From a virus (taxonomy: Duplodnaviria > Caudoviricetes), in IMG/VR virus record IMGVR_UViG_3300030372_004873, positions 1-41,619 of that record: a stretch of 41,619 nucleotides of DNA. One strand, written 5' to 3'. Made by a program: the position numbers and the translations under genes. Shown piece after piece: positions 2,659 to 41,557 of the stretch. Numbering within the stretch: position 1 is the first letter of the stretch; each line of letters starts with the position of its first letter. Under the pieces are notes generated by a model. That model was given only the letters and a program-made list of their open reading frames with translations. It searched no databases and was not told the origin of the DNA.

Positions 2659-3630
2659 CTACGCCTCCTTCACGTGTTTTGCGTACTCTTCGAGTGGCAC
2701 ACCCAGTTTTTTTGCAATAGCTACCTGTGAAGGTGTGAGTCTCACAGTGCGGCGTCCTGAGGACGATTTTCTGACAACCGAAGCAACTTTTTGCTTAGGC
2801 TTGTTTACATCCCCGCCATCTGAAAATTTATGGGGAAACTGTTCACGGATCCTCGAATCAATTTTATTATAATACTCATCCGAGCGAGGGTCAACCCCTT
2901 CATCCATTAAATCTTTATGTATATCATAAGCTGTGTAAGTCATAGCATTATCATTACCAAACCAAGTATTTTTTTGAGCCCATTCTTCTGCTCGAGGATC
3001 TTTAACCCTTGTAGTTTGTGGTTCAACCTGATTTATTTGGTCTTCCACATTTTCTTTTGGTTGATTTTCTAATTCTGTTTTTCTTTGAACAGCTTTAGCT
3101 TTTGATACTTTTAATCTTTCATCTTCAATTGTAAGACGAGCAATTTCTTGTTGAGCAGCTACTTGTTTCTCTACATCTTGAGCATTAACAGCAGCTTCAT
3201 ATGCCCGTTTGGCAAATTCTTTTTGATTAACTAAAGCTTTTTCTCTATCTACCAACATTGTATCATTTTGTATTATGTTAGAAGATTTTAATTTATCTGA
3301 CTCTTCTTTTATTTTTTTTGCATAAGCAATAGCGGCTTCTTCACGTCTTTCTGCTTCACGCATTTTTTTAGTAAGTTTATCAATACGTTTTTTTACACCC
3401 GCACTATATTCTTCAAGTTCGTCTTCTTTAGTTTCTTGTTTAGTTTCTTGTTTAACTTCTTCCTTAACTTCTTCAACTTCCACCACAGGAGTATCAGTAG
3501 ATACTTCTTCTTTGACAGGAGTTGTTTTTGTATCTTCCTTTAACTCGACATCAACAGCTTCACCTGAGGTATCAATAGGAACACTTTTATCTTGTTCACT
3601 TAATGCTTGTGGTTGCATAGACTTCTCCAT
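2659..3630 (-). CDS. capsid scaffolding protein (putative)
   Basis: 323 aa, acidic coiled-coil, ending in the helix-turn-helix-like LTPSQVAIAKKLGVPLEEYAK typical of scaffolds. Confidence 0.75.
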   Translation of the reverse strand: MEKSMQPQALSEQDKSVPIDTSGEAVDVELKEDTKTTPVKEEVSTDTPVVEVEEVKEEVKQETKQETKEDELEEYSAGVKKRIDKLTKKMREAERREEAAIAYAKKIKEESDKLKSSNIIQNDTMLVDREKALVNQKEFAKRAYEAAVNAQDVEKQVAAQQEIARLTIEDERLKVSKAKAVQRKTELENQPKENVEDQINQVEPQTTRVKDPRAEEWAQKNTWFGNDNAMTYTAYDIHKDLMDEGVDPRSDEYYNKIDSRIREQFPHKFSDGGDVNKPKQKVASVVRKSSSGRRTVRLTPSQVAIAKKLGVPLEEYAKHVKEA

Positions 3631-3631
3631 G

Positions 3632-4048
3632 TTAAATTAAATTAGCTGGCAAAATATCACGAGGATCATCAACAACTGCCAGTACTTCATCGTCGTTAAT
3701 TATCCTTAACTCACCACCATCAATGCTTACTCTAGAGCCTGCATATCGAGTAATGATAATCCAATCATCTTTTTTACACCAAGGACCATGAGGAAATTTT
3801 TCTTTATCGGTATAAGCATCAGGTCCTACTTTCATTACTTTACAAATATTAGTTGCAACTGAAGCTTGTTCTATAGCTTGATCTGTTAAATGAATTCCTC
3901 CTGCTGTTTTCCCTTCTAATTTTAAAGGAAATAACACAAGATGATAGCCTGTAGGTTCTGGTACTTTTTCTAATTCTTTTTTCTGAGTTTCTTTTTTCTT
4001 ACCATCCCAAATATGTTTGGGCATAATTAGTTTAGCTTCTTTAGTCAT
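3632..4048 (-). CDS. groES: GroES-like co-chaperonin
   Basis: PTGYHLVL...KTAGGIHL (mobile loop)...VMKVGP...YAG...RIINDDEVLAVV follows the Cpn10 pattern. Confidence 0.85.
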   Translation of the reverse strand: MTKEAKLIMPKHIWDGKKKETQKKELEKVPEPTGYHLVLFPLKLEGKTAGGIHLTDQAIEQASVATNICKVMKVGPDAYTDKEKFPHGPWCKKDDWIIITRYAGSRVSIDGGELRIINDDEVLAVVDDPRDILPANLI

Positions 4049-4235
4049 CGTCTAGCTCCGTTTTCTTTAGCAGGTCCGTGAGTTCCTGTTCTTCTTGTTG
4101 TAAGGCATGTAACTTACCCGTCAAATACCTATATTCATCCCAGTCTTTTACACCTAGTAATATAGCTTCTTTTACTTGGTCTTGTCTAGCTTTTAATTCT
4201 TTTTTATAATATGTAAATAAATTTTCTAACTGCAT
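4041..4235 (-). CDS. conserved hypothetical protein
   Basis: 64 aa helical hairpin with GVKDWDEYRYLTG; overlaps both neighbours. Confidence 0.7.
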   Translation of the reverse strand: MQLENLFTYYKKELKARQDQVKEAILLGVKDWDEYRYLTGKLHALQQEEQELTDLLKKTELDDD

Positions 4236-18401: not shown

Positions 18402-18562
18402 CCAAAAAACCATTTTAAAATTACAAAAATGGCTAGTGCATAAAGAACAAACTTACTACCACCAAAACACAAAGCCATAATTAAAAAATATTTTAAACTA
18501 AACTTATCTTGAGTTTCTACTTCACCTGGCAGATCATCCATAGGAATAAATTTATTTTTCAT
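18398..18562 (-). CDS. small membrane protein (54 aa, absent from the ORF track)
   Basis: MKNKFIPMDDLPGEVETQDKFSLKYFLIMALCFGGSKFVLYALAIFVILKWFFG; start and stop overlap the neighbours. Confidence 0.6.
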   Translation of the reverse strand: MKNKFIPMDDLPGEVETQDKFSLKYFLIMALCFGGSKFVLYALAIFVILKWFFG

Positions 18563-18732
18563 GGTACATTCCTCATCATATCTTGCAGCTTATGAAAATA
18601 AATTAACCTAAACTCAAAATCTTCTGCCATCAACATGGCTCTTTGTAACCATCCTACTCTATTCCAAAACAATACATCTGTCATAGGTAAAGATTCATAT
18701 TTTCCTATTTTTACAATAACTGTGCTGGTCAT
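18559..18732 (-). CDS. hypothetical protein (57 aa, absent from the ORF track)
   Basis: MTSTVIVKIGKYESLPMTDVLFWNRVGWLQRAML...; ATGA coupling; SD GGAGG. Confidence 0.65.
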   Translation of the reverse strand: MTSTVIVKIGKYESLPMTDVLFWNRVGWLQRAMLMAEDFEFRLIYFHKLQDMMRNVP

Positions 18733-18893
18733 TCTTCCTCCTGCAGTTTTACTTCTGTTTCAGTATCTTCATTAATAGCTTTATCAACAGGTAGCCCACC
18801 TATCTTGAGTATAGCTTCTTCTTTAGATTCAGCTTCAACATTTTTATAAATGTCTTTAGCTGTATATGTTTGTATAACTGTATATTTTTTCAT
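18729..18893 (-). CDS. hypothetical protein (54 aa, absent from the ORF track)
   Basis: MKKYTVIQTY...VEAESKEEA...; SD AAGGAG. Confidence 0.7.
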   Translation of the reverse strand: MKKYTVIQTYTAKDIYKNVEAESKEEAILKIGGLPVDKAINEDTETEVKLQEEE

Positions 18894-18911
18894 GTCTTTC
18901 TCCTTTTGTTA

Positions 18912-19100
18912 TGAGTGATTTAGGAACTCTATGGATCAAAAGATCATCGCCTTTGGTATCACTCAAACCTCAAAGACTGGCATATTTTATACCCACAATG
19001 TTAATTCATTGGGACAGGTATGTTTTTACATCTGGTAGCCTGTAGCGTTGACTAATAGCACTGAGTGCATCGCAACTTTTCATTATCAGAAACCAGTCTT
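18912..19100 (-). ncRNA. structured leader or small RNA (multi-branch domain plus hairpin)
   Basis: AAGACUGG (19100-19093) pairs with CCAGUCUU (18980-18973) around three internal stems; second stem UGAGUGAU/AUCACUCA (18965-58/18919-12); begins at the predicted transcription start. Confidence 0.55.
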
Positions 19101-19106
19101 ATATAC

Positions 19107-19135
19107 CCTATAATCCCATTATATTTTATAGTCAA
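19107..19135 (-). promoter_or_regulatory. sigma70-like promoter with ATGGGA box
   Basis: TTGACT-ataaaatataATGGGAt-TATAGG, 17-bp spacer, overlapping the terS stop. Confidence 0.6.
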
Positions 19136-19674
19136 GCCTTGTTTTCTATTTTAGGCATTTCTTTTATTTCTTCAAAATCAGTAGTAATACTGTATTGTTC
19201 TTTTAAATCCTGCAACTTTTTCTCTACTTCTTCCCTAGACATTGAATCAATAGTTCCAGTCAAGATCTCTTTCTTATCCACATACAACCCAGCAATTTGT
19301 CCTCTACGAGTCTCTGCAGCTACGGCGGCATTCCAATTACCAGATTCACTAGCCTTATCTCTAATTCTAGCTAATGTAGATAAAGACCTTTCTTGTGTAC
19401 ATTTATATCTTTCAACTATAGCTCTTCTCTCTGCTTCAATTGCTTTTGCAACCAAAGGATACTTCTGCGGGTTCTGCAGTTCAGACGCACGAACAACAGC
19501 AGAATCTTTTGCGTAACCTGCTTGTAATGCACAATGCGTAGCGGTATGCAAACCTTCTGAATGAACCAAAAGAAGAATAAATTTTCTTTGTTTACCTGTA
19601 ATTTTTCGGTGAAATAGAGCATCTGACAATGCTTCGGGTATTATAACCTCTTGGTTTTCTTTGTTTTCTTCCAT
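19132..19674 (-). CDS. terS: terminase small subunit
   Basis: ITGKQRKF...ATHCALQAGY..SA...ASEL HTH pattern and AAVAAETRRGQIAGLYVDKKE; start moved to MEENKE. Confidence 0.85.
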   Translation of the reverse strand: MEENKENQEVIIPEALSDALFHRKITGKQRKFILLLVHSEGLHTATHCALQAGYAKDSAVVRASELQNPQKYPLVAKAIEAERRAIVERYKCTQERSLSTLARIRDKASESGNWNAAVAAETRRGQIAGLYVDKKEILTGTIDSMSREEVEKKLQDLKEQYSITTDFEEIKEMPKIENKA

Positions 19675-19687
19675 AATGCACCTGTTA

Positions 19688-19903
19688 TATAGATGTTTCT
19701 TCCCAGAAATTATACAATATCTAATCACACAATGCAATGCGAGTTATGTTTGTAAATATAAAAAGGTAACTTCTGGTAACTTGTAAATAACTCTCTAAGT
19801 TACCTAAAAAGGTAGGAAATACAAGGGATGTAACTCGGTAACTTGGTAACTTCTATTTTCACGTATAAGAGATAAAATATTTATCTGAGTAAAAACATCT
19901 ATA
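19688..19903. repeat. iteron-like cluster (candidate replication origin or terminase site)
   Basis: GGTAACTT at 19765, 19775, 19837 and 19845, inverted at 19797, partial at 19830; flanked by the 11-bp inverted pair TATAGATGTTT (19688)/AAACATCTATA (19893). Confidence 0.75.
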
Positions 19904-19914
19904 GAAAAGGGTGT

Positions 19915-20115
19915 TTATGCAAAAAACTTTGGATCTTCTCTAACTAGTTTTAATAAATCATATAAATGAGCTGCACCTTCAGTGACAATAACTTCCCACT
20001 CCGTTTTTGTATAGGAGCGGTCGTGTTTAGAATCAAAAAATTTTATAGATACGTTCCCACATTTAGGACAACTAGATATTTTTCTTACTGGGCTGTTTGG
20101 GAGGGATATGGACAT
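19915..20115 (-). CDS. hypothetical protein with a CPKCG knuckle
   Basis: 66 aa; SD GAGG. Confidence 0.65.
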   Translation of the reverse strand: MSISLPNSPVRKISSCPKCGNVSIKFFDSKHDRSYTKTEWEVIVTEGAAHLYDLLKLVREDPKFFA

Positions 20116-20293
20116 GTAACCTCTTTACTTTGTGTAATGGAAATGGAATGACATTTTTAGGCAGACCTTGCTTAAAATATACATCATCCATTAATTTGAG
20201 AGTTTCTTTTCGTTCGTGTTCCGTGGTCCGAGCTGCAAGCAACTGGTCTATCATATCTCGTTGAGCGAGTAATTCTTTATTTGATCTAGCCAC
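20072..20293 (-). CDS. hypothetical protein
   Basis: 73 aa; GTG start with SD AAGGAGG; NVIPFP motif. Confidence 0.7.
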   Translation of the reverse strand: MARSNKELLAQRDMIDQLLAARTTEHERKETLKLMDDVYFKQGLPKNVIPFPLHKVKRLHVHIPPKQPSKKNI

Positions 20294-20312
20294 GTTAACC
20301 TCCTTTAGATAA

Positions 20313-20392
20313 CCCCCGTATGAGCGTAACTCTTAACGGGGGATATCGAAGTGAACGGGCGAAATTATAGCCTATTTTTGTAAAAAATGCAA
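20313..20392 (-). promoter_or_regulatory. sigma70-like promoter plus leader hairpin
   Basis: TTGCAT-17-TATAAT (20392-20364); CCCCCGT/ACGGGGG stem at 20313-20342 just before the SD. Confidence 0.65.
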
Positions 20393-20623
20393 TTAATCGA
20401 TATATATTTTATATTTTGTCAATGAATCAGTCTCTAAATGAAGTGGTCCATAATACCAAACAGGATTTCCATGTTCATCAACCCATACTTGATTATAATG
20501 TTTATCTTCTAATTCTCCCTCACTTTTACATGTTTTACACTGAAGAATTGATTCATCAGCTTCCCAATTATGACGTGTATACCCATTGCCTTTACACATT
20601 GGACAAATAACTTTTTTAACCAC
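20393..20623 (-). CDS. DnaJ-type zinc-finger protein
   Basis: CPMCKGNG...CKTCKSEG (CxxCxGxG pattern). Confidence 0.75.
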   Translation of the reverse strand: MVKKVICPMCKGNGYTRHNWEADESILQCKTCKSEGELEDKHYNQVWVDEHGNPVWYYGPLHLETDSLTKYKIYID

Positions 20624-20774
20624 CGTATCTCCTCCAAATAATTCTATTCAATCTTTCCCAATGAGTCCTATCTTCTACTTCTTTCCAGGTCCGTGGGCTA
20701 CGAAGCGCAATTTTACCAACACGCTCCCTTTCTTGTCGTAATCTTTTCTCTAAAAGTGATTTCTTGCGATCCAT
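20616..20774 (-). CDS. small basic protein (52 aa, absent from the ORF track)
   Basis: MDRKKSLLEKRLRQERERVGKIALRSPRTWKEVEDRTHWERLNRIIWRRYGG; SD GAGGAG; fills the gap in the operon. Confidence 0.65.
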   Translation of the reverse strand: MDRKKSLLEKRLRQERERVGKIALRSPRTWKEVEDRTHWERLNRIIWRRYGG

Positions 20775-20932
20775 TCTCCTCTTCCTTCACTATCAGTTGA
20801 TTGTCGAATATAATAGTTACGTTGCTCTTCTAGTTCTATTTCATGGCGTCTGTTTTTTTTATAACGGCCATATACAAAACCTAAAATCAAACCAGATAAG
20901 AGTCCAATAATCATCATGCTGCTGTGTTCCAT
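20750..20932 (-). CDS. small single-pass membrane protein
   Basis: 60 aa; N-terminal hydrophobic helix followed by basic residues; SD AAGGAG. Confidence 0.65.
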   Translation of the reverse strand: MEHSSMMIIGLLSGLILGFVYGRYKKNRRHEIELEEQRNYYIRQSTDSEGRGEWIARNHF

Positions 20933-21072
20933 TCTTTTCTCCTTTCTTCCTCAAGATTAAAACATCGAATGCATAACCATGTAATAATGTTGCCACTATT
21001 TATTTGCATCATATTTTCTTTTAAATATTCTTTATGACAACAATGACAACTTTCTTTCTTACTCCACAACAT
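20914..21072 (-). CDS. small zinc-binding protein (52 aa, absent from the ORF track)
   Basis: MLWSKKESCHCCHKEY...WLCIRCF; TAATG coupling to the upstream gene. Confidence 0.6.
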   Translation of the reverse strand: MLWSKKESCHCCHKEYLKENMMQINSGNIITWLCIRCFNLEEERRKEWNTAA

Positions 21073-21224
21073 TACGCAATTTTTCTTTTTTGTCTTCTAG
21101 TTTCTTTTTCAACTAACTCAGTAATTTGCATACCCACAGACCTATTCTGTTTATCCGCTAATGTTTTTAATTTATCATAAGTATCTTTGCGCACGGCAAC
21201 AGATTTAAATTTCAAAATGTTCAT
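21072..21224 (-). CDS. ribbon-helix-helix (Arc/CopG-like) DNA-binding protein (50 aa, absent from the ORF track)
   Basis: MNILKFKSVAVRKDTYDKLKTLADKQNRSVGMQITELVEKE...: beta strand, helix, NRS turn, helix. Confidence 0.75.
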   Translation of the reverse strand: MNILKFKSVAVRKDTYDKLKTLADKQNRSVGMQITELVEKETRRQKRKIA

Positions 21225-24164: not shown

Positions 24165-24523
24165 TTTTTCTTCTCCTGTTTTTTATTTAATTCTTTAATT
24201 CTTTCAGAAGTCATTCTTCCTCTCCTTTCCCCTTCTGATTCAAAAGAAATATTTTTTTTATTTGTTCTTGCTTCTATTTCTCCAGCAATTGCTGCGTAAG
24301 CCGCCATATCAATATAACTATCTTTTTTATGTTGGTTCATGAGCCGTGCTACTTTAACCAATGCCATACATATCGCCACATCGTGCGCTGTAATTTTTTT
24401 TTCTAAAAAGACAGACCATAAGTCAGCAATGTTTTGATGATTTTTTAATTTATCACCGTACTCTTCTTGACGATCACCACTAATTAATTTTTTAGCTTCA
24501 TCAAGTAATTCTTTACAAATCAT
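24161..24523 (-). CDS. DUF6378-like protein
   Basis: GDRQEEYGD...NIADLWS...KVARL...DSYIDMAAYAA. Confidence 0.75.
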   Translation of the reverse strand: MICKELLDEAKKLISGDRQEEYGDKLKNHQNIADLWSVFLEKKITAHDVAICMALVKVARLMNQHKKDSYIDMAAYAAIAGEIEARTNKKNISFESEGERRGRMTSERIKELNKKQEKKK

Positions 24524-26151
24524 GCACAGTTCCTTTCATGAAAAAATATAGGTTCATATTCGTACTGTCCTTCTGTTCGATGAACAATATGTAATTCTTT
24601 CTTCGCTCTCGTAGCTCCTACATAAAAAACTCTTGCTTCATCATCCCGTCCTTGTTGATTAGCTGTAGAAGATTTGTAAGGACCAAAAGATAAATCAGTA
24701 ATTAACATTACATTATCTCTTTCCCCTCCTTTACTGGCATGAATAGTAGAAACTTCAATACGAGGAATAGCATCTAGTTTATTTCCTGAACGCATTATAG
24801 ATCTTAAATAATTTATTCTTCTTTTAAAACCTTTTGCGTTTAACATATCATACCAGGCTATCTCTTTCACACTTACTTCTTTATCTTGCGATAACTTAAT
24901 AGTTTCTCTTAACCCATATTCTTTAATAAGCAAATCTAAATTAAACATTTGTTCTGGTTGTCCTTTAAATACACCATAATTTCTTTTTATTCTGGTGCTA
25001 TCCATATAATTATAAAGAGTATCACAATGTACTCCTGAAATTTCTTTTCCATTTTGAAGAGATGTCCATGCTCTAATAGCTTCGATGTATTTAAAATTAA
25101 TTACAGACTGTCCATAACGTTTATATAACCATCCATATATTTCTAAAGATTCACATACTTGCTTTACAATTTCGTGCGTCCTACATAAAATTAACCAATT
25201 ACCTTCTTTAAGTCCTTTGTTTAAAGGTCTGATATTTAAGACTTTTCTTATCCCCTCTTCTTCTCTCGGATTATATTCTTTTGGGATACGCTGGGATATT
25301 GACTGTGCTAATTTTGTGGCAAGTGTGTGTACACTAATTGGAATACGATAAGATTGTGTTAAAGGAATAATAGTATTATTTGAATCATGAGCCATATCTA
25401 TAAAGTGCTCAATGTCAGCTCCTGCCCATCTAAAAATAGCCTGGTCATCATCTCCAGCTACATAAGTTTCTAATGCTCCAGATTCTTCCTGTAACATGTC
25501 TACAATTCTCCATTGTTGTTTGGATAGATCTTGAGCCTCATCTATAAATAAATATTTTAATCTAGGAGAATTTCTTTTTTTTAAAAATTGAATAAAGTAA
25601 TCAACGTATTCAAACTTATCTCTATCTTCTTTAAATTTACGAAGATCTAAATCCATTTGTTCAATCATGTTCCGTGCGCCGTAGTTATTGAGTGTGGTAT
25701 CACGAAAAACTTTTATTAAACGATCGTCATCATCAGGATACTTTGCGTAGGCTAAATTAATAAGATCCTGGTATTCACTTTTAGCTGTTGGCATAGATAT
25801 ATCTACACCATTTCCTTTTTTCATTTTATTAACATATTCATGTCCCGTGAGCCGTGATAAATCTTCATAATCATGATCATCCATAATTTGCGATTGTTTT
25901 AACTGAAGCTGTCTATAAGCTAATGAATGTAAAGTACAGAAGTAAGGATACTCTTGTTTCAATTCATCTTTCGTATAAGAACTATCATTAACTACACGGT
26001 CTCTAATTTCTTCTGCAGCTTTAACAGTAAAACTAAAATACCCAATCTCTCTAGGAGAACAAATGTTATTTTTTACTAACTCATTTACCTTGTTTTTTAA
26101 AAAAGTTGTTTTACCTGTACCTGGAGGACCTATAACAATATGTCTATGCAT
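24520..26151 (-). CDS. UvrD/Rep-like superfamily 1 helicase
   Basis: GPPGTGKT, TLHS, DEAQD, GDDDQAIF, QSYR, STIHASKGGE and YVGATRAK. Confidence 0.93.
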   Translation of the reverse strand: MHRHIVIGPPGTGKTTFLKNKVNELVKNNICSPREIGYFSFTVKAAEEIRDRVVNDSSYTKDELKQEYPYFCTLHSLAYRQLQLKQSQIMDDHDYEDLSRLTGHEYVNKMKKGNGVDISMPTAKSEYQDLINLAYAKYPDDDDRLIKVFRDTTLNNYGARNMIEQMDLDLRKFKEDRDKFEYVDYFIQFLKKRNSPRLKYLFIDEAQDLSKQQWRIVDMLQEESGALETYVAGDDDQAIFRWAGADIEHFIDMAHDSNNTIIPLTQSYRIPISVHTLATKLAQSISQRIPKEYNPREEEGIRKVLNIRPLNKGLKEGNWLILCRTHEIVKQVCESLEIYGWLYKRYGQSVINFKYIEAIRAWTSLQNGKEISGVHCDTLYNYMDSTRIKRNYGVFKGQPEQMFNLDLLIKEYGLRETIKLSQDKEVSVKEIAWYDMLNAKGFKRRINYLRSIMRSGNKLDAIPRIEVSTIHASKGGERDNVMLITDLSFGPYKSSTANQQGRDDEARVFYVGATRAKKELHIVHRTEGQYEYEPIFFHERNCA

Positions 26152-27265
26152 CCGTAACCTCCAATATAGTTGTTGCTATGTGATAAGGTATTTGTGGTAC
26201 GACAGCGTTACCTAAGGCTTTAAGTCGGTGTGTCCTGTCGGGTACCCCATCAGCCACTCTACCCACGTCGGGTTCAATGTCCCACCAGTTTCGGTTTGGC
26301 TCTTCATGGCAACTCTTTCCTCTAAATTCCCCTTGGCCCTTCCTCGACTTTTTATCGTCGATGTTTTCTCTGCCATTGCTTTTGATGCTCGAGGTGTTGG
26401 CCCTATCTGTTGTTTGCCTTCCACTAATTCTCTCAGTCCTCGACCATAACCTTTTGTTGTCCTCCCTGGTTCTTTTACTCTCGGTGTCGGCCACAGGCGT
26501 GGCTCCTTCACTTGGTCCTGGAGACGTATCTGTATTTGTTGACCACTCGGTCTTTTCAGATGTCCCTCGTCCAAGGCTTTCTTTATTCCTGGTAAATTGC
26601 TCCCCCCAGCTGCGGCGTCTGGCGTCCTCCACATTGGCATGTTCGTTACCGGTTTTCCATACTGTACTTGTTCCGCTAGATTGCCTGGTGGTACTGTTGT
26701 CCTTCCTATACTCTCTCGATATTTTTTTCTCTTCTCCATCGCCTCTTTGCTCCTTGTTGAAATCGCAGTTGCGCTGGGAGTAAGCCACTGTCCAGATTCT
26801 TTCCCTTTGGTGGTTGGCACCGATGCTCGCAGCTGAAATACTAAACGTTCTGAAGGTGTAACCTTCACTCTCCAAGTCCTGGTGTACGGTGTCGAGACCG
26901 AGTTTAATGTGTCCACTAACATTTTCTCCAATAACCCAAGTTGGTCTGCATTCTTTGATAAGTCTAAAATACTCTGGCCAGAGATGTCTTGGATCTTTTT
27001 CACCTTTTTTAAGTCCAGCGATACTGAACGGTTGGCATGGATAACCCCCTGTGATAATGTCGATAGATTCAATTCCATCTGCTTTGAGTTTTTCATATGT
27101 TAGCTCCTTTATATCATTATATACTGGTACAGTAGGCCAGTTTTTATTTAAAACTTTTGTACAGAAACTATCTATCTCACAAAAGGCTACTGTTTTAATT
27201 CTTTTTGTGGCTTCTAAACCTAAGGAAAATCCCCCTATGCCACTAAATAAATCTAAATGGTTCAT
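26144..27265 (-). CDS. DNA cytosine-C5 methyltransferase, alpha polypeptide
   Basis: Motif I DLFSGIGG, IV GGYPCQPFS, VI ENV, VIII QRER and X LGNAVVP; no motif IX in this frame. Confidence 0.92.
   Translation of the reverse strand: MNHLDLFSGIGGFSLGLEATKRIKTVAFCEIDSFCTKVLNKNWPTVPVYNDIKELTYEKLKADGIESIDIITGGYPCQPFSIAGLKKGEKDPRHLWPEYFRLIKECRPTWVIGENVSGHIKLGLDTVHQDLESEGYTFRTFSISAASIGANHQRERIWTVAYSQRNCDFNKEQRGDGEEKKISREYRKDNSTTRQSSGTSTVWKTGNEHANVEDARRRSWGEQFTRNKESLGRGTSEKTEWSTNTDTSPGPSEGATPVADTESKRTREDNKRLWSRTERISGRQTTDRANTSSIKSNGRENIDDKKSRKGQGEFRGKSCHEEPNRNWWDIEPDVGRVADGVPDRTHRLKALGNAVVPQIPYHIATTILEVTDA
26212..27096 (-). CDS. nested +1-frame gene: C5 methyltransferase beta polypeptide (TRD-like modules plus motif IX)
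   Basis: 294 aa wholly inside the alpha gene; SD AAGGAG 7 nt before the ATG; four [W/G]xTP...LxxxV modules; ends LNPTWVEWLMGYPTGHT. Confidence 0.8.
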   Translation of the reverse strand: MKNSKQMELNLSTLSQGVIHANRSVSLDLKKVKKIQDISGQSILDLSKNADQLGLLEKMLVDTLNSVSTPYTRTWRVKVTPSERLVFQLRASVPTTKGKESGQWLTPSATAISTRSKEAMEKRKKYRESIGRTTVPPGNLAEQVQYGKPVTNMPMWRTPDAAAGGSNLPGIKKALDEGHLKRPSGQQIQIRLQDQVKEPRLWPTPRVKEPGRTTKGYGRGLRELVEGKQQIGPTPRASKAMAEKTSTIKSRGRAKGNLEERVAMKSQTETGGTLNPTWVEWLMGYPTGHTDLKP

Positions 27266-28791
27266 TAATATGGATCCTCCTCACTAAAATCTTTTTCACT
27301 TAATTTATATTGAGTGTCTAAAACAGACACAGGTACTTTCCAACAATGCTCTGGTTTGTTATTTACTTTTAATTTAGCAGTGGCACCTTGAAACTCAGAA
27401 AATATTTTGTATTGATGTGAATCAGACATCTTAGTAAATCTTTTTGTTTTTAAAAAATCTCTAAAGGATTGTGGCTTAAAAAAGAAATAAGTTTCATGTT
27501 CATAAACCATTCCTTGCAACACATCTTGTCTATCTTTTGCTCCTCTATTGTTTTCTAAAAATATTTGTAATTGACTTAGGAATTGACCTTTAGCTGTTAC
27601 TTCTCCTGGTAATTGAATATAATCTCCCTCACCCATTCCTTTTAAAAGATTATCAACCATATCTGCCCAAATAGCAGGAGCCATGGGCCGTGGGCTTTCA
27701 TTCGCTTGCGCTATACACGCTTTTCTATATTCAGCATGACTAGCTAATTGATCAACTGTTAAGATAATAACTTTTCCATTATGAGTTAATTCATACATAG
27801 GATTATCTGACACCCATTTTTTTAAACTGGTAATATCATTCGACGCAGAATTACCCACACCAAATTTCTGTGATTGACATTTTATTTTTTCACACACCGA
27901 TTTAAAAGTAGGTTCTTCACAACGATAAAAATATTTTTTATCTTCAACCTGTTTAAATATAGTTAGTACTTCTCTACTTGGTAAAGGAGGATTAAAATAT
28001 TTGGTGTTATAATGATCTAATTTTTCTTCTAACTTTTCAGGAAATCTGTTGCGTAAATAAATGCCTAATTGAAATAAACACTGGTTCCGTGAGCCTTCAG
28101 CAAAACCTTGGGAAGCAAGTGTAATTAAACACGGAGGAGCTCCTTTAAAATCATCATTCTTTTTTTCAGTAACTGGTTTATCGATAACCACGTTGCTTAA
28201 TTGCGATACCACTTTCGTTTCATAATGCTTTATAAACATCTTTAATTCAATCAATGCATTACCTTCATCATCTAACGCATAACGTGTCGGAAACTCTGGA
28301 TGATTATATGGTAAATTTAAAAAGTTACCTGTCCCTTTTGAGTTCAATTCAATTTGTTTTGGAAATATCTCACTCTCACCGTAGCCTAACCATGCAGCTA
28401 TCTCTGTTAATTTTATTTGCATGTCTTTGGCAGTGGCTGGTTCTCTTACAAATAAAAATACATGAGCGCCCCCACTCTTTGACTTACATACAACTAACGG
28501 GAGTTTCTTTTCAACGATTTTGGTAATTAATTTTTTATGATCAAAACCATCATAAGTATCAATATCTATTGCACCCCAGGTACAAGTATTGTCATCACGA
28601 ATAGGAATAATACCAAGAGAAGGCTCCTTACCTTCTAAGTGATCATGCCATTTTTCTTTTGTTAAATTTTCTTTTTCAATCCAAGATTTAGCTTCGAGTT
28701 TACCTGACTCATTTTTTGAACGACTTTGCGTTTGGCCGTAGGCTCTATCTAAACCACTAAATATCTGTATAAATTTTTCTTTGTCGTCCAT
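27265..28791 (-). CDS. primase (AEP/primase-polymerase type with PriCT-like domain)
   Basis: GAIDID and KSKSGGAHVFLF catalytic motifs; PPCL...EGSRNQCLF...PPLPSREV. Confidence 0.85.
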   Translation of the reverse strand: MDDKEKFIQIFSGLDRAYGQTQSRSKNESGKLEAKSWIEKENLTKEKWHDHLEGKEPSLGIIPIRDDNTCTWGAIDIDTYDGFDHKKLITKIVEKKLPLVVCKSKSGGAHVFLFVREPATAKDMQIKLTEIAAWLGYGESEIFPKQIELNSKGTGNFLNLPYNHPEFPTRYALDDEGNALIELKMFIKHYETKVVSQLSNVVIDKPVTEKKNDDFKGAPPCLITLASQGFAEGSRNQCLFQLGIYLRNRFPEKLEEKLDHYNTKYFNPPLPSREVLTIFKQVEDKKYFYRCEEPTFKSVCEKIKCQSQKFGVGNSASNDITSLKKWVSDNPMYELTHNGKVIILTVDQLASHAEYRKACIAQANESPRPMAPAIWADMVDNLLKGMGEGDYIQLPGEVTAKGQFLSQLQIFLENNRGAKDRQDVLQGMVYEHETYFFFKPQSFRDFLKTKRFTKMSDSHQYKIFSEFQGATAKLKVNNKPEHCWKVPVSVLDTQYKLSEKDFSEEDPY

Positions 28792-30627: not shown

Positions 30628-32067
30628 ATGAACTATAGATTTAAAACGAAACCTTTTCAACATCAATTAGAGGCGTTGGAAAAAAGCTGGAATAAGGAAG
30701 TTTGGGCTTTATTTATGGAGATGGGTACTGGTAAAACCAAAGTATGCATTGATAATATTGCTATTTTATATGATAAAGGCAAAATAAACTCTGCTATTAT
30801 TATTGTACCTAATGGTATTAAACGTAATTGGCGCAATGAATTAAAAATTCATCTCCCAGATCATATTAATTATCGGGTAGCAGTATGGTCGGCTTCTCCT
30901 AAAAAAGAAGAAAAAAAAGAACTTGATCAGTTGTCCGTGATTACTGATGACTTAACCATTTTTATTATAAATATTGAAGCTTTATCAACGACAAGAGGAT
31001 TTGAATTTGCTCGTAGTTTTTTATTGCGTAATGCTTCATTAGCCTGTGTAGATGAATCAACCACAATTAAAAATCATAATGCTAAAAGAACAAAAAATAT
31101 TTTAAAACTTAGGGATTTGGCAAAGTATAAAAGAATAATGACAGGATCCCCTGTTACTAAATCTCCTTTAGATTTATTTTCACAGATACAATTTCTTGAT
31201 CCTTATCTTATTGATCAACAAAGTTATTATAGTTTTCGTGCCAGGTACGCTGTTATTGTTCAGCGGTCCGTGGGTACTCATTCATTTCAACATATTATTA
31301 GGTATCAACGCTTAGACGAACTACAGGAAAAAATTCAACATTTTTCTACTCGAGTATTAAAAAGTGAATGTTTAGATTTACCACCAAAACTTTATACTAA
31401 ACGAGTGGTATCGATGACACCTGAACAATTAAAAGCGTATGTAGAGATGAAAAAATCTGCTTTAACTTTTTTAGAAGATAATAAAATGATGACAGCAGCT
31501 ACTGTGTTAACACAATTAATTAGATTACATCAAATAACATGTGGTCATGTTAAAACAGACGATGGTGAAATTAAAGCGATTAAAAACAATAGAATACAAG
31601 AATTATTAAATGTTTTAGAAGAAACTCGAGGTAAAGTAATTATCTGGGCAGTATATCGCCACGATATACAAGAAATAGAAAAAGTAATAGGAGAAATATA
31701 TGGTAAAGAATCTGTGGCTACATATTATGGTGATACGAAAGATTCTGATCGTCAGCATATTGTGGATCGTTTTCAAAGTTCTGGTGACAATCTCCGATTT
31801 TTTGTCGGAAATCCCAAAACAGGAGGATATGGTCTTACTCTTACTTCTAGTCACACTGTTGTTTATTTTTCAAATGACTACAGTTTAGAGGTAAGAATGC
31901 AATCAGAAGATAGAGCTCATCGCATAGGGCAGACAAGTAAGGTTACTTATGTGGATTTAATGGCTGAACATACAATTGATGAAAAAATTGTGAAAGCTTT
32001 AAATGCTAAGATAGATCTGGCTAGTCAAGTAATGGGAGAAGACCCTAAAAAAATATTATTCAGCTAA
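30628..32067 (+). CDS. SNF2-family (superfamily 2) helicase
   Basis: EMGTGKT, DEST, TGSP, GGYGLTLT and QSEDRAHRIGQ. Confidence 0.93.
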   Translation: MNYRFKTKPFQHQLEALEKSWNKEVWALFMEMGTGKTKVCIDNIAILYDKGKINSAIIIVPNGIKRNWRNELKIHLPDHINYRVAVWSASPKKEEKKELDQLSVITDDLTIFIINIEALSTTRGFEFARSFLLRNASLACVDESTTIKNHNAKRTKNILKLRDLAKYKRIMTGSPVTKSPLDLFSQIQFLDPYLIDQQSYYSFRARYAVIVQRSVGTHSFQHIIRYQRLDELQEKIQHFSTRVLKSECLDLPPKLYTKRVVSMTPEQLKAYVEMKKSALTFLEDNKMMTAATVLTQLIRLHQITCGHVKTDDGEIKAIKNNRIQELLNVLEETRGKVIIWAVYRHDIQEIEKVIGEIYGKESVATYYGDTKDSDRQHIVDRFQSSGDNLRFFVGNPKTGGYGLTLTSSHTVVYFSNDYSLEVRMQSEDRAHRIGQTSKVTYVDLMAEHTIDEKIVKALNAKIDLASQVMGEDPKKILFS

Positions 32068-39911: not shown

Positions 39912-40202
39912 ATGAGCGTAGATATACAGAAAGTTCCTATGGTCCGTGTAACGTGGTTAGATGCTCGTGATACAGAAACAGGTTGGTTAGATATAAAAGA
40001 AGTGATTAATGCGCCGTTAGCCGTGTGCCAAGAAGTAGGATGGATGATTACTAATACACCAGAAAAAGTAGTTATTATGCGGTCATATAGCAAAGATAAA
40101 GATGATATTAGTGGTGGTGGTGCCATTGCTATTCCTAAATGTTGGATAACAAAAACAGAATATTTGGAGGTAAGCTATGCAGAAACAAACCAGAATAAAT
40201 AG
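39912..40202 (+). CDS. conserved hypothetical phage protein
   Basis: 96 aa; VTWLDA...GW...VGW...IPKCWI pattern. Confidence 0.75.
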   Translation: MSVDIQKVPMVRVTWLDARDTETGWLDIKEVINAPLAVCQEVGWMITNTPEKVVIMRSYSKDKDDISGGGAIAIPKCWITKTEYLEVSYAETNQNK

Positions 40203-40869
40203 TTTATTTGGAGAAACTATTTATTGTACTAATATAGAAAATGACAATCAATCCCTAGCCACCCATATTGAATCTTTTGTAAAAGAAAAACCAGGAAGAA
40301 CAGCAGCAACTACAGACGTGAAAGGCAATACGCAGTTTACTGATTTAGAAGAAGCTAAAGATAATTTACATAAAGATAAGAAATATTTACCTTTATTTAT
40401 TAAATTAAAAAAATGTATTTTAGAATTTATGACGGCTAAAGGCTATAATCCTGATAAGTTTGATATTCACATAACTAAAGCATGGGCGACTTACACTGCA
40501 AAAGATCAACATATTGCTAGTCACAAACATACCGCTAGTCATTTTAGTTTTGTTTATTATGTGCGTAATAATGACATGGGCAATATACGATTTGAAAAAG
40601 AATTGGCTTCTCAAACAGGTTTATTTATTCCACCCACAGATCAATATATTGTTGATTGGAATCAATTTAATTTTTCGAGTTATATTATTCCTGTAACCAC
40701 TAATAATCTTATAGTGTTTCCGAGTGGTTTGTTACACTATACCGAGGTTAATACTCAAGAAGAAGCTCGTATCAGTATTAGTGGGGATATATTATTAACT
40801 ATGAAGAAAGGTATAAAGACAGAACACTGTATACCTCATCCAAGTGGCTGGGATACTATTTCAAATTAG
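40177..40869 (+). CDS. 2OG-Fe(II) oxygenase superfamily protein (TIGR02466-like)
   Basis: AW...HKH...SFVYYV...VFPSGLLH...RISIS. Confidence 0.85.
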   Translation: MQKQTRINSLFGETIYCTNIENDNQSLATHIESFVKEKPGRTAATTDVKGNTQFTDLEEAKDNLHKDKKYLPLFIKLKKCILEFMTAKGYNPDKFDIHITKAWATYTAKDQHIASHKHTASHFSFVYYVRNNDMGNIRFEKELASQTGLFIPPTDQYIVDWNQFNFSSYIIPVTTNNLIVFPSGLLHYTEVNTQEEARISISGDILLTMKKGIKTEHCIPHPSGWDTISN

Positions 40870-40963
40870 TTGTCAAGTAATCTTTTTGAAATTGTTTTCT
40901 TGATATATTTGATAGACATGTTTAAATTAGTTCTCACCCAAAATTACAATCAAGGAGAAAAAA

Positions 40964-41233
40964 ATGGAAAATCAGGAAATTTTAAAAGCTATTGCTTCCC
41001 TTGCTGATAAGGTGAGCAGATATCATGAACGCTTGTTAGCAACGGAAAGAGATAACAAAAGACTAGAAGAAACTTTATCAACTCATTTAAAAGGCTGTTC
41101 GTGTCATGATAAACCCAAAGAAATAGCTAAAGGTCCTGATTATCCTAGTGCAGGAAGAGCTTTAACAGAAGACGAAAGATTATTTGTTCACGAAAATATG
41201 GCTAAACATAAGGTAGCAGTTAATGGCTCCTAA
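40964..41233 (+). CDS. hypothetical coiled-coil protein
   Basis: 89 aa; SD AAGGAG. Confidence 0.75.
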   Translation: MENQEILKAIASLADKVSRYHERLLATERDNKRLEETLSTHLKGCSCHDKPKEIAKGPDYPSAGRALTEDERLFVHENMAKHKVAVNGS

Positions 41234-41303
41234 TTGTCCTACATGTGGTTGTGATGAAGATAAATGCGTCTGTGATTCTTTTTGTGAAAACTGCGGAGCT
41301 TAA
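41223..41303 (+). CDS. 26-aa Cys-rich peptide (absent from the ORF track)
   Basis: MAPNCPTCGCDEDKCVCDSFCENCGA, 7 Cys; overlaps the upstream stop. Confidence 0.55.
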   Translation: MAPNCPTCGCDEDKCVCDSFCENCGA

Positions 41304-41557
41304 TCGTCTTTAGTTTCACCAAATACATCTGGTAACTTTGTTACCTTTACTTGTATATTAGTTTCAATATCAGCAGCTGTTGTATCTGTTTCTGGATTAT
41401 CAACATCTGCTTTGGCTGCTTCTTCAGAATCATAATCAACACCAGTTTTTTTATTTTTAACTTCTCTATGCACTTCAGGTTGTAATATAGCCACTTCTTG
41501 ACCATTAACAATTTCAGTTCCAATTTCTTTTGATTCTTGTATTTTTTTAAACGTCAT
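41300..41557 (-). CDS. hypothetical protein (tail operon)
   Basis: 85 aa; NKKTGVDYDSEEAAKADV motif; ATGA coupling. Confidence 0.7.
   Translation of the reverse strand: MTFKKIQESKEIGTEIVNGQEVAILQPEVHREVKNKKTGVDYDSEEAAKADVDNPETDTTAADIETNIQVKVTKLPDVFGETKDD

Follow-up and report, generated by a model that had tools for sequence, protein, structure and literature searches.

We find that a tailed phage carries a methyltransferase gene with two overlapping open frames, whose products together would probably be a multispecific C5 methyltransferase of two chains, into which recognition cassettes are plugged as exchangeable parts. The outer frame (alpha) holds the catalytic motifs, while a frame nested inside it (beta) holds four tandem cassettes that, judging from their sequence, are likely to be the parts of the enzyme that recognize DNA.

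The gene lies in a 41,619-nt stretch of DNA, here called the window. Among the 32 ORFs scanned, this tailed-phage stretch encodes capsid, terminase, DNA polymerase A, a UvrD-like helicase, an AEP primase and an SNF2 helicase. Its DNA polymerase shares 53–57% identity with the polymerases of HTVC023P-type pelagiphages and of two related phages, a group that may infect several taxa according to an excerpt of one preprint (bioRxiv 2019.12.14.876532). Marine sequencing runs contain DNA near-identical to the window, and in two RNA runs 0.10 and 0.06 of the words were present. The methylase gene sits within a replication operon, with the primase on one side and the helicase on the other (Table 1), and its region has a G+C content of 49% versus 35.5% for the whole window. 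No restriction-enzyme model of PADLOC matched in the 30 of 52 window ORFs of at least 80 aa that were scanned. Elsewhere in the window, the SNF2 helicase and a 2OG-Fe(II) oxygenase cluster (30628-32067 and 39912-41557) lie on the plus strand, the rest of the genome being on the minus strand, and few long ORFs are seen at 18500-21200.

Table 1. Features of the nested methyltransferase locus. Positions are those of the window, except in the last two rows, which give positions within locus L239.
Feature	Position	Strand	Remarks
AEP primase, upstream neighbor	27265..28791	minus	stop overlaps alpha start
alpha ORF, 373 aa	26144..27265	minus	C5 cytosine methyltransferase motifs I-VIII, unconstrained linker, motif X
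alpha motif sites	PCQ ~27043; ENV ~26926; motif VIII ~26812-26792; motif X LGN ~26215-26207	minus	
Shine-Dalgarno-like AAGGAG	27104..27109	minus	7 nt before beta ATG, inside alpha coding sequence
beta ORF, 294 aa	26212..27096	minus	+1 frame inside alpha; conserved N-part, four cassettes, motif IX
alpha linker over cassettes	26291..26790	minus	no amino-acid constraint detected; no stop codon
cassette 1, type T05, 52 aa	26632..26787	minus	first position in 16/20 cases; beta within-type dN/dS 0.13
cassette 2, type T02, 46 aa	26494..26631	minus	dN/dS 0.09; never last
cassette 3, type T17, 30 aa	26404..26493	minus	present or absent among near-identical phages
cassette 4, type T24, 42 aa	26278..26403	minus	terminal; GGG for TGG at 26403-26401
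motif IX equivalent, LNP..W.EWLMGYP, in beta	26212..26277	minus	invariant columns; overlaps alpha segment preceding motif X
UvrD-like helicase, downstream neighbor	24520..26151	minus	start overlaps alpha end
L239 alpha-type gene	3134-4156		
L239 +1 frame	3441-3977		

The best 80 IMG/VR matches to beta and the best 80 to the N-terminal part of alpha gave, together with the window, 161 sequences, of which 146 could be parsed into 113 distinct loci. The other 15 were dropped: seven without the N-terminal part of alpha, four ending too early, and four (L090, L095, L112, L119) without a motif IX match. Those last four and L252, L296, L299, L300 and L319 carry alpha-like genes without a recognized motif IX or cassette frame, some with a very short variable region, and are possibly beta-less or divergent forms.

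Alpha matches PF00145 (E 1.7e-45, above the cut-off) and phrog_363, and its residues 3–163 align to M.HhaI residues 14–172 (E 2e-14). The catalytic PC, the ENV and the motif VIII arginines of alpha are invariant in 63 homologues, and motif X is present in alpha in 111 of the 113 loci, the remaining two being cut by contig ends. Beta matches phrog_1008 (E 8.8e-23), and in 112 of the 113 loci an upstream Met is similarly positioned. A Shine-Dalgarno-like site stands ahead of 89 out of 112 beta starts, compared with 156 out of 886 internal ATGs, a difference partly confounded by conserved Lys-Glu codons of alpha. The third frame of the minus strand is closed, while the alpha and beta frames are both open.

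Selection switches frame along the gene, from alpha to both frames, then to beta and back to alpha. In ratios that are descriptive, the pairwise values not being independent, dN/dS at the gene start is 0.19 in alpha versus 1.58; through motifs IV-VIII it is 0.21–0.28 in alpha, 0.42–0.65 in beta and 1.3–3.3 in the third frame; over the cassettes it is 0.11 in beta and 1.8–2.2 in the alpha linker; in the motif IX segment it is 0.18 in beta versus 0.79 in alpha; and at motif X it is 0.18 in alpha versus 1.31. Positive selection on alpha was considered and rejected, as the third frame also shows values above 1.

Over the cassettes, alpha has no stop codon in any of the 113 loci, where 734 stops would be expected if beta were recoded synonymously, and the third frame of the same loci has 1275 stops in 16557 codons. 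When beta was recoded synonymously across the 510-nt cassette region of the window, alpha remained open in 1 of 2000 trials. These recoding results rule out a chance double ORF, and they bear out the original observation that both frames stay open throughout, which they do beyond what chance would give. Without stops and without constraint, alpha must read through to motif X while its sequence over the cassettes is irrelevant; the suggestion that the outer frame acts as a tolerant linker therefore stands, with the qualification that this linker is unconstrained yet obligatorily open. The layout is that of a two-chain enzyme, with beta under selection in the other frame, motif IX on beta, and motifs I-VIII and X on alpha. 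The N-terminal part of beta (window 27096-26790) is selected in both frames over alpha motifs IV-VIII and was modeled, at low confidence, as a helix plus a hairpin. In three annotated records, NC_019972.1 (L161), OQ984151.1 (L162) and NZ_CP040830.1 (L163), only the outer methyltransferase gene is annotated; one of the three is an archaeal plasmid, which likewise has the nested frame without annotation.

The array in the window reads T05-T02-T17-T24, followed by LNPTWVEWLMGYP from 26277. Minus-strand translation reproduces all four cassette starts first noted, WLTP at 26787, WRTP at 26631, WPTP at 26493 and GPTP at 26403 (codon GGG), as well as the four ends, NLAEQV, RLQDQV, GLRELV and NLEERV, at 26682, 26526, 26439 and 26328. 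The four cassettes are thus real, whereas the sizes and extent first given for them needed correction: they are 52, 46, 30 and 42 aa long, and the array spans 26787-26278. Cassette 3 belongs to a type that is found after motif IX, at 95% identity, in two database proteins, P0054 and P0109. It had also been proposed that the fourth module may be silenced, and this found no support. Among the 386 cassettes, position 1 is G only once, in this window; sequencing run X2 has this four-cassette allele with TGG instead, and cassette 4 is otherwise intact. At base 26403, run X1 has GGG and run X2 has TGG, while the contigs of run X3 break there. The GGG is a rare point variant and not a programmed silent copy, although a cassette 4 bearing it is possibly weakened. 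In the same cassette, all 8 seawater runs have T (plus strand) at position 26336, where the window has G, giving RDK in the runs versus RAK in the window in beta, and this difference is either a consensus error of the window or a rare variant.

Types were defined at 50% identity by average linkage, which replaced a single-linkage clustering that had chained unrelated types. The 386 cassettes fall into 57 types and form 86 distinct arrays in the 113 loci, with type frequencies that are biased, the loci being top matches to the window. Cassettes are 13–73 aa long (median 40), and arrays of one to six cassettes occur in 1, 18, 46, 33, 11 and 4 loci, respectively, L102 representing a one-cassette backbone. 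A T stands at position 3 in all 57 types, which the parsing pattern itself partly enforces, a P stands at position 4 in 55 of them, and 52 have an L/I-xxx-V-like end. Cassette middles are basic (K 12%, R 8%). Each of the 31 testable types has a dN/dS in beta between 0.00 and 0.25 (pooled 0.11), and terminal and non-terminal cassettes are equally constrained (0.11 and 0.11).

No array repeats a type (0 of 86, with 12–16 expected and 0 of 5000 shuffles). The two commonest types, T01 and T02 (91 copies), are the two WRTPD types; one of them is present in 91 of 113 loci, but they never occur together (0 versus 8.7 expected) and neither is ever last in an array. Their exclusion may mean that they have a target in common, or simply that they are alleles of a single slot. 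Together, the absence of repeats and the exclusion of T01 and T02 fit one function per type, with redundancy purged. Position is biased, many types being only ever last; nonetheless, 8 type pairs are found in both orders. Single-cassette (T12-like) nested methylases were seen in Bacteroidota MAGs (L211:1019-2865, L223:1043-1810), where they adjoin AbiEi/AbiEii-type genes and not phage genes.

Cassettes can also follow motif IX, as 41 of the 114 beta proteins that match motif IX and 9 of the 113 loci show. Of these post-IX cassettes, 21 of 84 are of types also found upstream of motif IX; within a single protein, no post-IX cassette shares its type with an upstream one. In L008, L009, L017, L045, L114, L151, L152, L154, L160, P0039 and relatives, beta extends past motif IX and past alpha's stop and carries 1–5 more cassettes; some of these extended forms end in a segment that looks helix-turn-helix-like by eye, and the end segment of P0039 had no Pfam match. 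Conversely, there is a subfamily related to L239 in which motifs VIII, IX and X lie in one frame with no in-frame WxTP (118 of 120 proteins, P0121-P0240), and the linkers of the motif-IX-in-alpha proteins inspected are 87, 107 or 136 aa long. In the two such loci that were read, L239 and L247, the +1 frame keeps the N-terminal part and the cassettes without motif IX. The post-IX cassettes and this subfamily indicate that cassettes are kept independently of motif IX and of position. In the L239-type alpha, motif IX comes immediately after an alpha-type W..EP..V.R segment, an arrangement that resembles a tandem duplication with both frames being read.

Of 79 loci parsed from bacteria, archaea, plasmids and phages, 59 showed the nested layout, with motif X again lying in alpha. 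In those loci, 44 of 181 cassettes match marine types at 50% or more, including T04 at 76% in a Paenibacillus plasmid, and some of the MAG contigs with marine-type cassettes may be binned phage DNA. With E up to 0.001, a profile of the cassettes plus motif IX matches 21,575 clusters of proteins grouped at 50% identity. Four proteins, P0013, P0048, P0063 and P0110, were tried as natural single-chain forms in which alpha and beta parts are joined; they are without motif X and were therefore treated as artefacts of frameshifts or of gene calling.

Array composition turns over more quickly than the core, with entire cassettes inserted, dropped or swapped at the WxTP codons. Arrays differ in 8 of 25 pairs whose cores are at least 99% identical and in 93 of 115 pairs at 95–99%. 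Homologues had been predicted to vary in cassette number and order and to share near-identical cassettes between distant genomes; both were seen, the former in the spread from one to six cassettes. At the finest scale, L001 and L081 correspond to the window minus exactly cassette 3 (90 nt), with the cut falling within the WPTP codons, in line with the idea that the conserved cassette start serves as an exchange point. Among the 8 seawater runs, this 90-nt joint was found in four (X4, X7, X10, X14), cassette 3 was covered in three, and neither was found in one, X16. The WPTP junction occurs in 25 synonymous forms among 171 copies, so that it is conserved as protein and leaves short DNA homology, and a strict DNA recombinase site at the junction was rejected on the same count. 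Pairs with cores less than 75% identical that share a cassette at 90% or higher nucleotide identity number only two, which counts against frequent long-range transfer.

Neither sequence nor structure searches linked the cassettes to a known target-recognition domain. The cassette-plus-IX profile, run against PDB sequences with E up to 10, had no match, all clusters that came back from the ESM Atlas were of hypothetical proteins, and hhalign against one conventional enzyme aligned 10 motif IX columns only (probability 6%). AlphaFold gave no packed fold for beta (pLDDT 50, pTM 0.25), with cassettes 1 and 2 forming local helices only. A model of the database chimera P0110 aligned to M.HhaI with Z 19.6 and rmsd 2.8 over 187 residues, the alignment ending at model residue 346 and M.HhaI chain residue 296, close to what we take to be the position of motif IX. 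In this model the end of the alignment is consistent with a motif IX equivalent in beta, and the core plus motif IX account for the ~187 aligned residues. The cassettes of the P0110 model were not placed on the M.HhaI recognition domain, and two of its three fall below pLDDT 50. The PTPTA of the cassettes resembles the PTITT of a conventional enzyme in an excerpt of PMC11954522, as a resemblance only.

Depletion of k-mers in 3.7-kb flanks, compared with cassette type, hinted at pairings of T02 with GCATGC, T03 with GAATTC and T09 with GAWTC, which we rejected as evidence because the flanks are homologous and not independent. Pfam searches found no cognate endonuclease among the neighbors of the 6 of 8 single-cassette-like or odd loci that were scanned, so that no type could be tied to a target.

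The beta cassettes are read as the recognition region because they are the only constrained sequence between motifs VIII and IX, the interval in which C5 methyltransferases recognize their targets according to an excerpt of PMC5944983. The same excerpt reports that C5 enzymes split between VIII and IX complement well. Against this reading, M.HhaI and M.HaeIII, as excerpted from PMC2790894, have a conserved TL dipeptide with two recognition loops, of which the N-terminal one is critical; all variable sequence here follows TP, a register that differs from the two-loop arrangement of M.HhaI.

In the mechanism that we propose, beta would be translated from its own ribosome-binding site and would dock on alpha through motif IX. 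The tethered cassettes would then take turns at the DNA-binding cleft, each serving one target: their common WxTP and LxxxV ends would dock on the core, and the variable middle would read the bases. Cassettes would be exchanged by recombination at the 9–12-bp junction, and the benefit would be that phage DNA escapes several host restriction enzymes. A wider version is plausible, but we lean slightly away from it: cassettes would be position-independent specificity peptides acting in trans on a separate catalytic chain, and phages of different phyla would draw on a common library of dozens to hundreds, recombined at a 12-bp junction concealed in the overprinted frame, to assemble multispecific methylases as needed.

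We infer the anti-restriction purpose from precedent, from fast turnover and from the depletion of CGCG, GGCC, CCGG and GCGC. The precedent is that Bacillus phages array target-recognition domains against restriction, as stated in the portion of PMC12707154 available. With palindromes counted on both strands, the words under-represented in the window are CG (0.65 of expected), CGCG, GGCC, CCGG, GCGC, CATG, GATATC and CTTA; CpG is counted 1704 times in the whole window versus 2619 expected, and GANTC shows no depletion there. Restriction systems are reported to be rare in SAR11 in an excerpt of PMC9516812, which weakens the anti-restriction purpose if the host is SAR11.

The cassettes might instead bind DNA jointly or without base specificity, adding affinity or processivity for one short or relaxed target, with their number and order tuning activity. 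Their basic middles and the lack of a recovered recognition-domain fold would suit this alternative, as would the genome-wide CpG depletion, which could also come from a relaxed CG-type enzyme. We nevertheless consider it unlikely: a generic module could duplicate, yet no array repeats a type; each type is under strong selection and keeps its own sequence across distant genomes; and single-cassette forms exist. It is distinctly improbable that the enzyme uses just the cassette adjoining motif IX and keeps the rest as a silent reserve, to be moved in by deletions from one WxTP box to another in the manner of phase variation. Deletion at the box does occur in nature and the types are position-biased, with many found only last, but non-terminal cassettes are as constrained as terminal ones, and T01 and T02, despite their abundance, never reach the last place. 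Deletion would also not bring post-IX cassettes in front of motif IX, and the junction is conserved as protein, not as a recombinase site.

That beta contributes motif IX only, with the cassettes as unrelated cargo such as peptides binding host defence or replication proteins, would explain why cassettes lie on either side of motif IX, why some arrays end helix-turn-helix-like and why no DNA-binding fold was recovered for them. It would, however, leave the enzyme without a constrained recognition region, and cassettes stay between motifs VIII and X even when motif IX has moved to alpha, so that we regard it as very improbable. Finally, the enzyme could be multispecific while its marks serve phage replication, packaging or control of host genes and not escape from restriction. 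The position of the gene between primase and helicase in a replication operon, the rarity of restriction systems reported for SAR11 (PMC9516812, in excerpt) and the existence of such roles for orphan phage methylases (PMC12707154, in the portion available) speak for it. Fast combinatorial turnover among near-identical phages better fits conflict with varied hosts, and the C-containing palindromes CGCG, GGCC, CCGG and GCGC are depleted in the window; we hold this to be the least probable of the alternatives.

The multispecific two-chain enzyme that we favor would probably work like a Bacillus multispecific enzyme; it is built like M.EcoHK31I and lacks one defining feature of each. SPR and phi3T are multispecific C5 methyltransferases of Bacillus temperate phages, with modules of 38–57 aa, a size similar to that of the cassettes. 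Enzymes of this kind share with ours the tandem short modules in the variable region, the status of phage orphan and a proposed anti-restriction role (PMC12707154, in the portion available), and independent exchange of modules is found here as it is there. In the Bacillus enzymes, however, recognition domains and catalytic motifs share one polypeptide, whereas here the cassettes are on a second chain in the +1 frame, are TP-first, are found after motif IX as well, and draw on a pool with no fewer than 57 types; in-frame cassettes were found in none of the 120 single-frame VIII-IX-X proteins.

M.EcoHK31I (E. coli, YGGCCR) resembles the phage enzyme in that beta lies wholly in the other frame of alpha, with motifs I-VIII and X on alpha and motif IX on beta, according to excerpts of PMC2836561 and PMC3404938. 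It differs in being described as monospecific, with a predicted recognition domain in alpha. In the phage enzyme, by contrast, the variable region of alpha is unconstrained and varies in length with the cassettes, and beta has one to six shuffled cassettes; unlike M.EcoHK31I, it is also an orphan. M.AquI is another natural split enzyme, whose small chain has part of the variable region and motif IX, but this chain also has motif X, and the excerpt of PMC3404938 describes no nested frame or array. In Helicobacter pylori, recognition-domain sequences of restriction-modification genes also move within and between genes and thereby change specificity, although in Type I and related genes and as large chromosomal domains (PMC3983042, in excerpt); the phage modules are 30–70 aa long, belong to a C5 enzyme, are overprinted on the catalytic gene and vary in copy number. 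No paper describing such shuffled cassettes on a nested chain of a methyltransferase was listed in our searches, which covered few subscription journals and not REBASE.

A nested chain and tandem recognition domains are each known from few enzymes, and their combination is large and unannotated. Were the wider version true, M.EcoHK31I-like enzymes would carry their recognition domain on the small chain, contrary to where it has been placed in print, and the cassettes would supply ready-made parts for programmable C5 methylation. Loop swapping in monospecific C5 enzymes has given mostly weak, relaxed products, as excerpted from PMC2790894. If every cassette confers one specificity, natural modules of 30–50 residues would directly test how C5 methyltransferases read DNA, the location of the recognition domain in two-chain C5 enzymes would have to be revised, and the counter-defence of marine phages would be readable from sequence.
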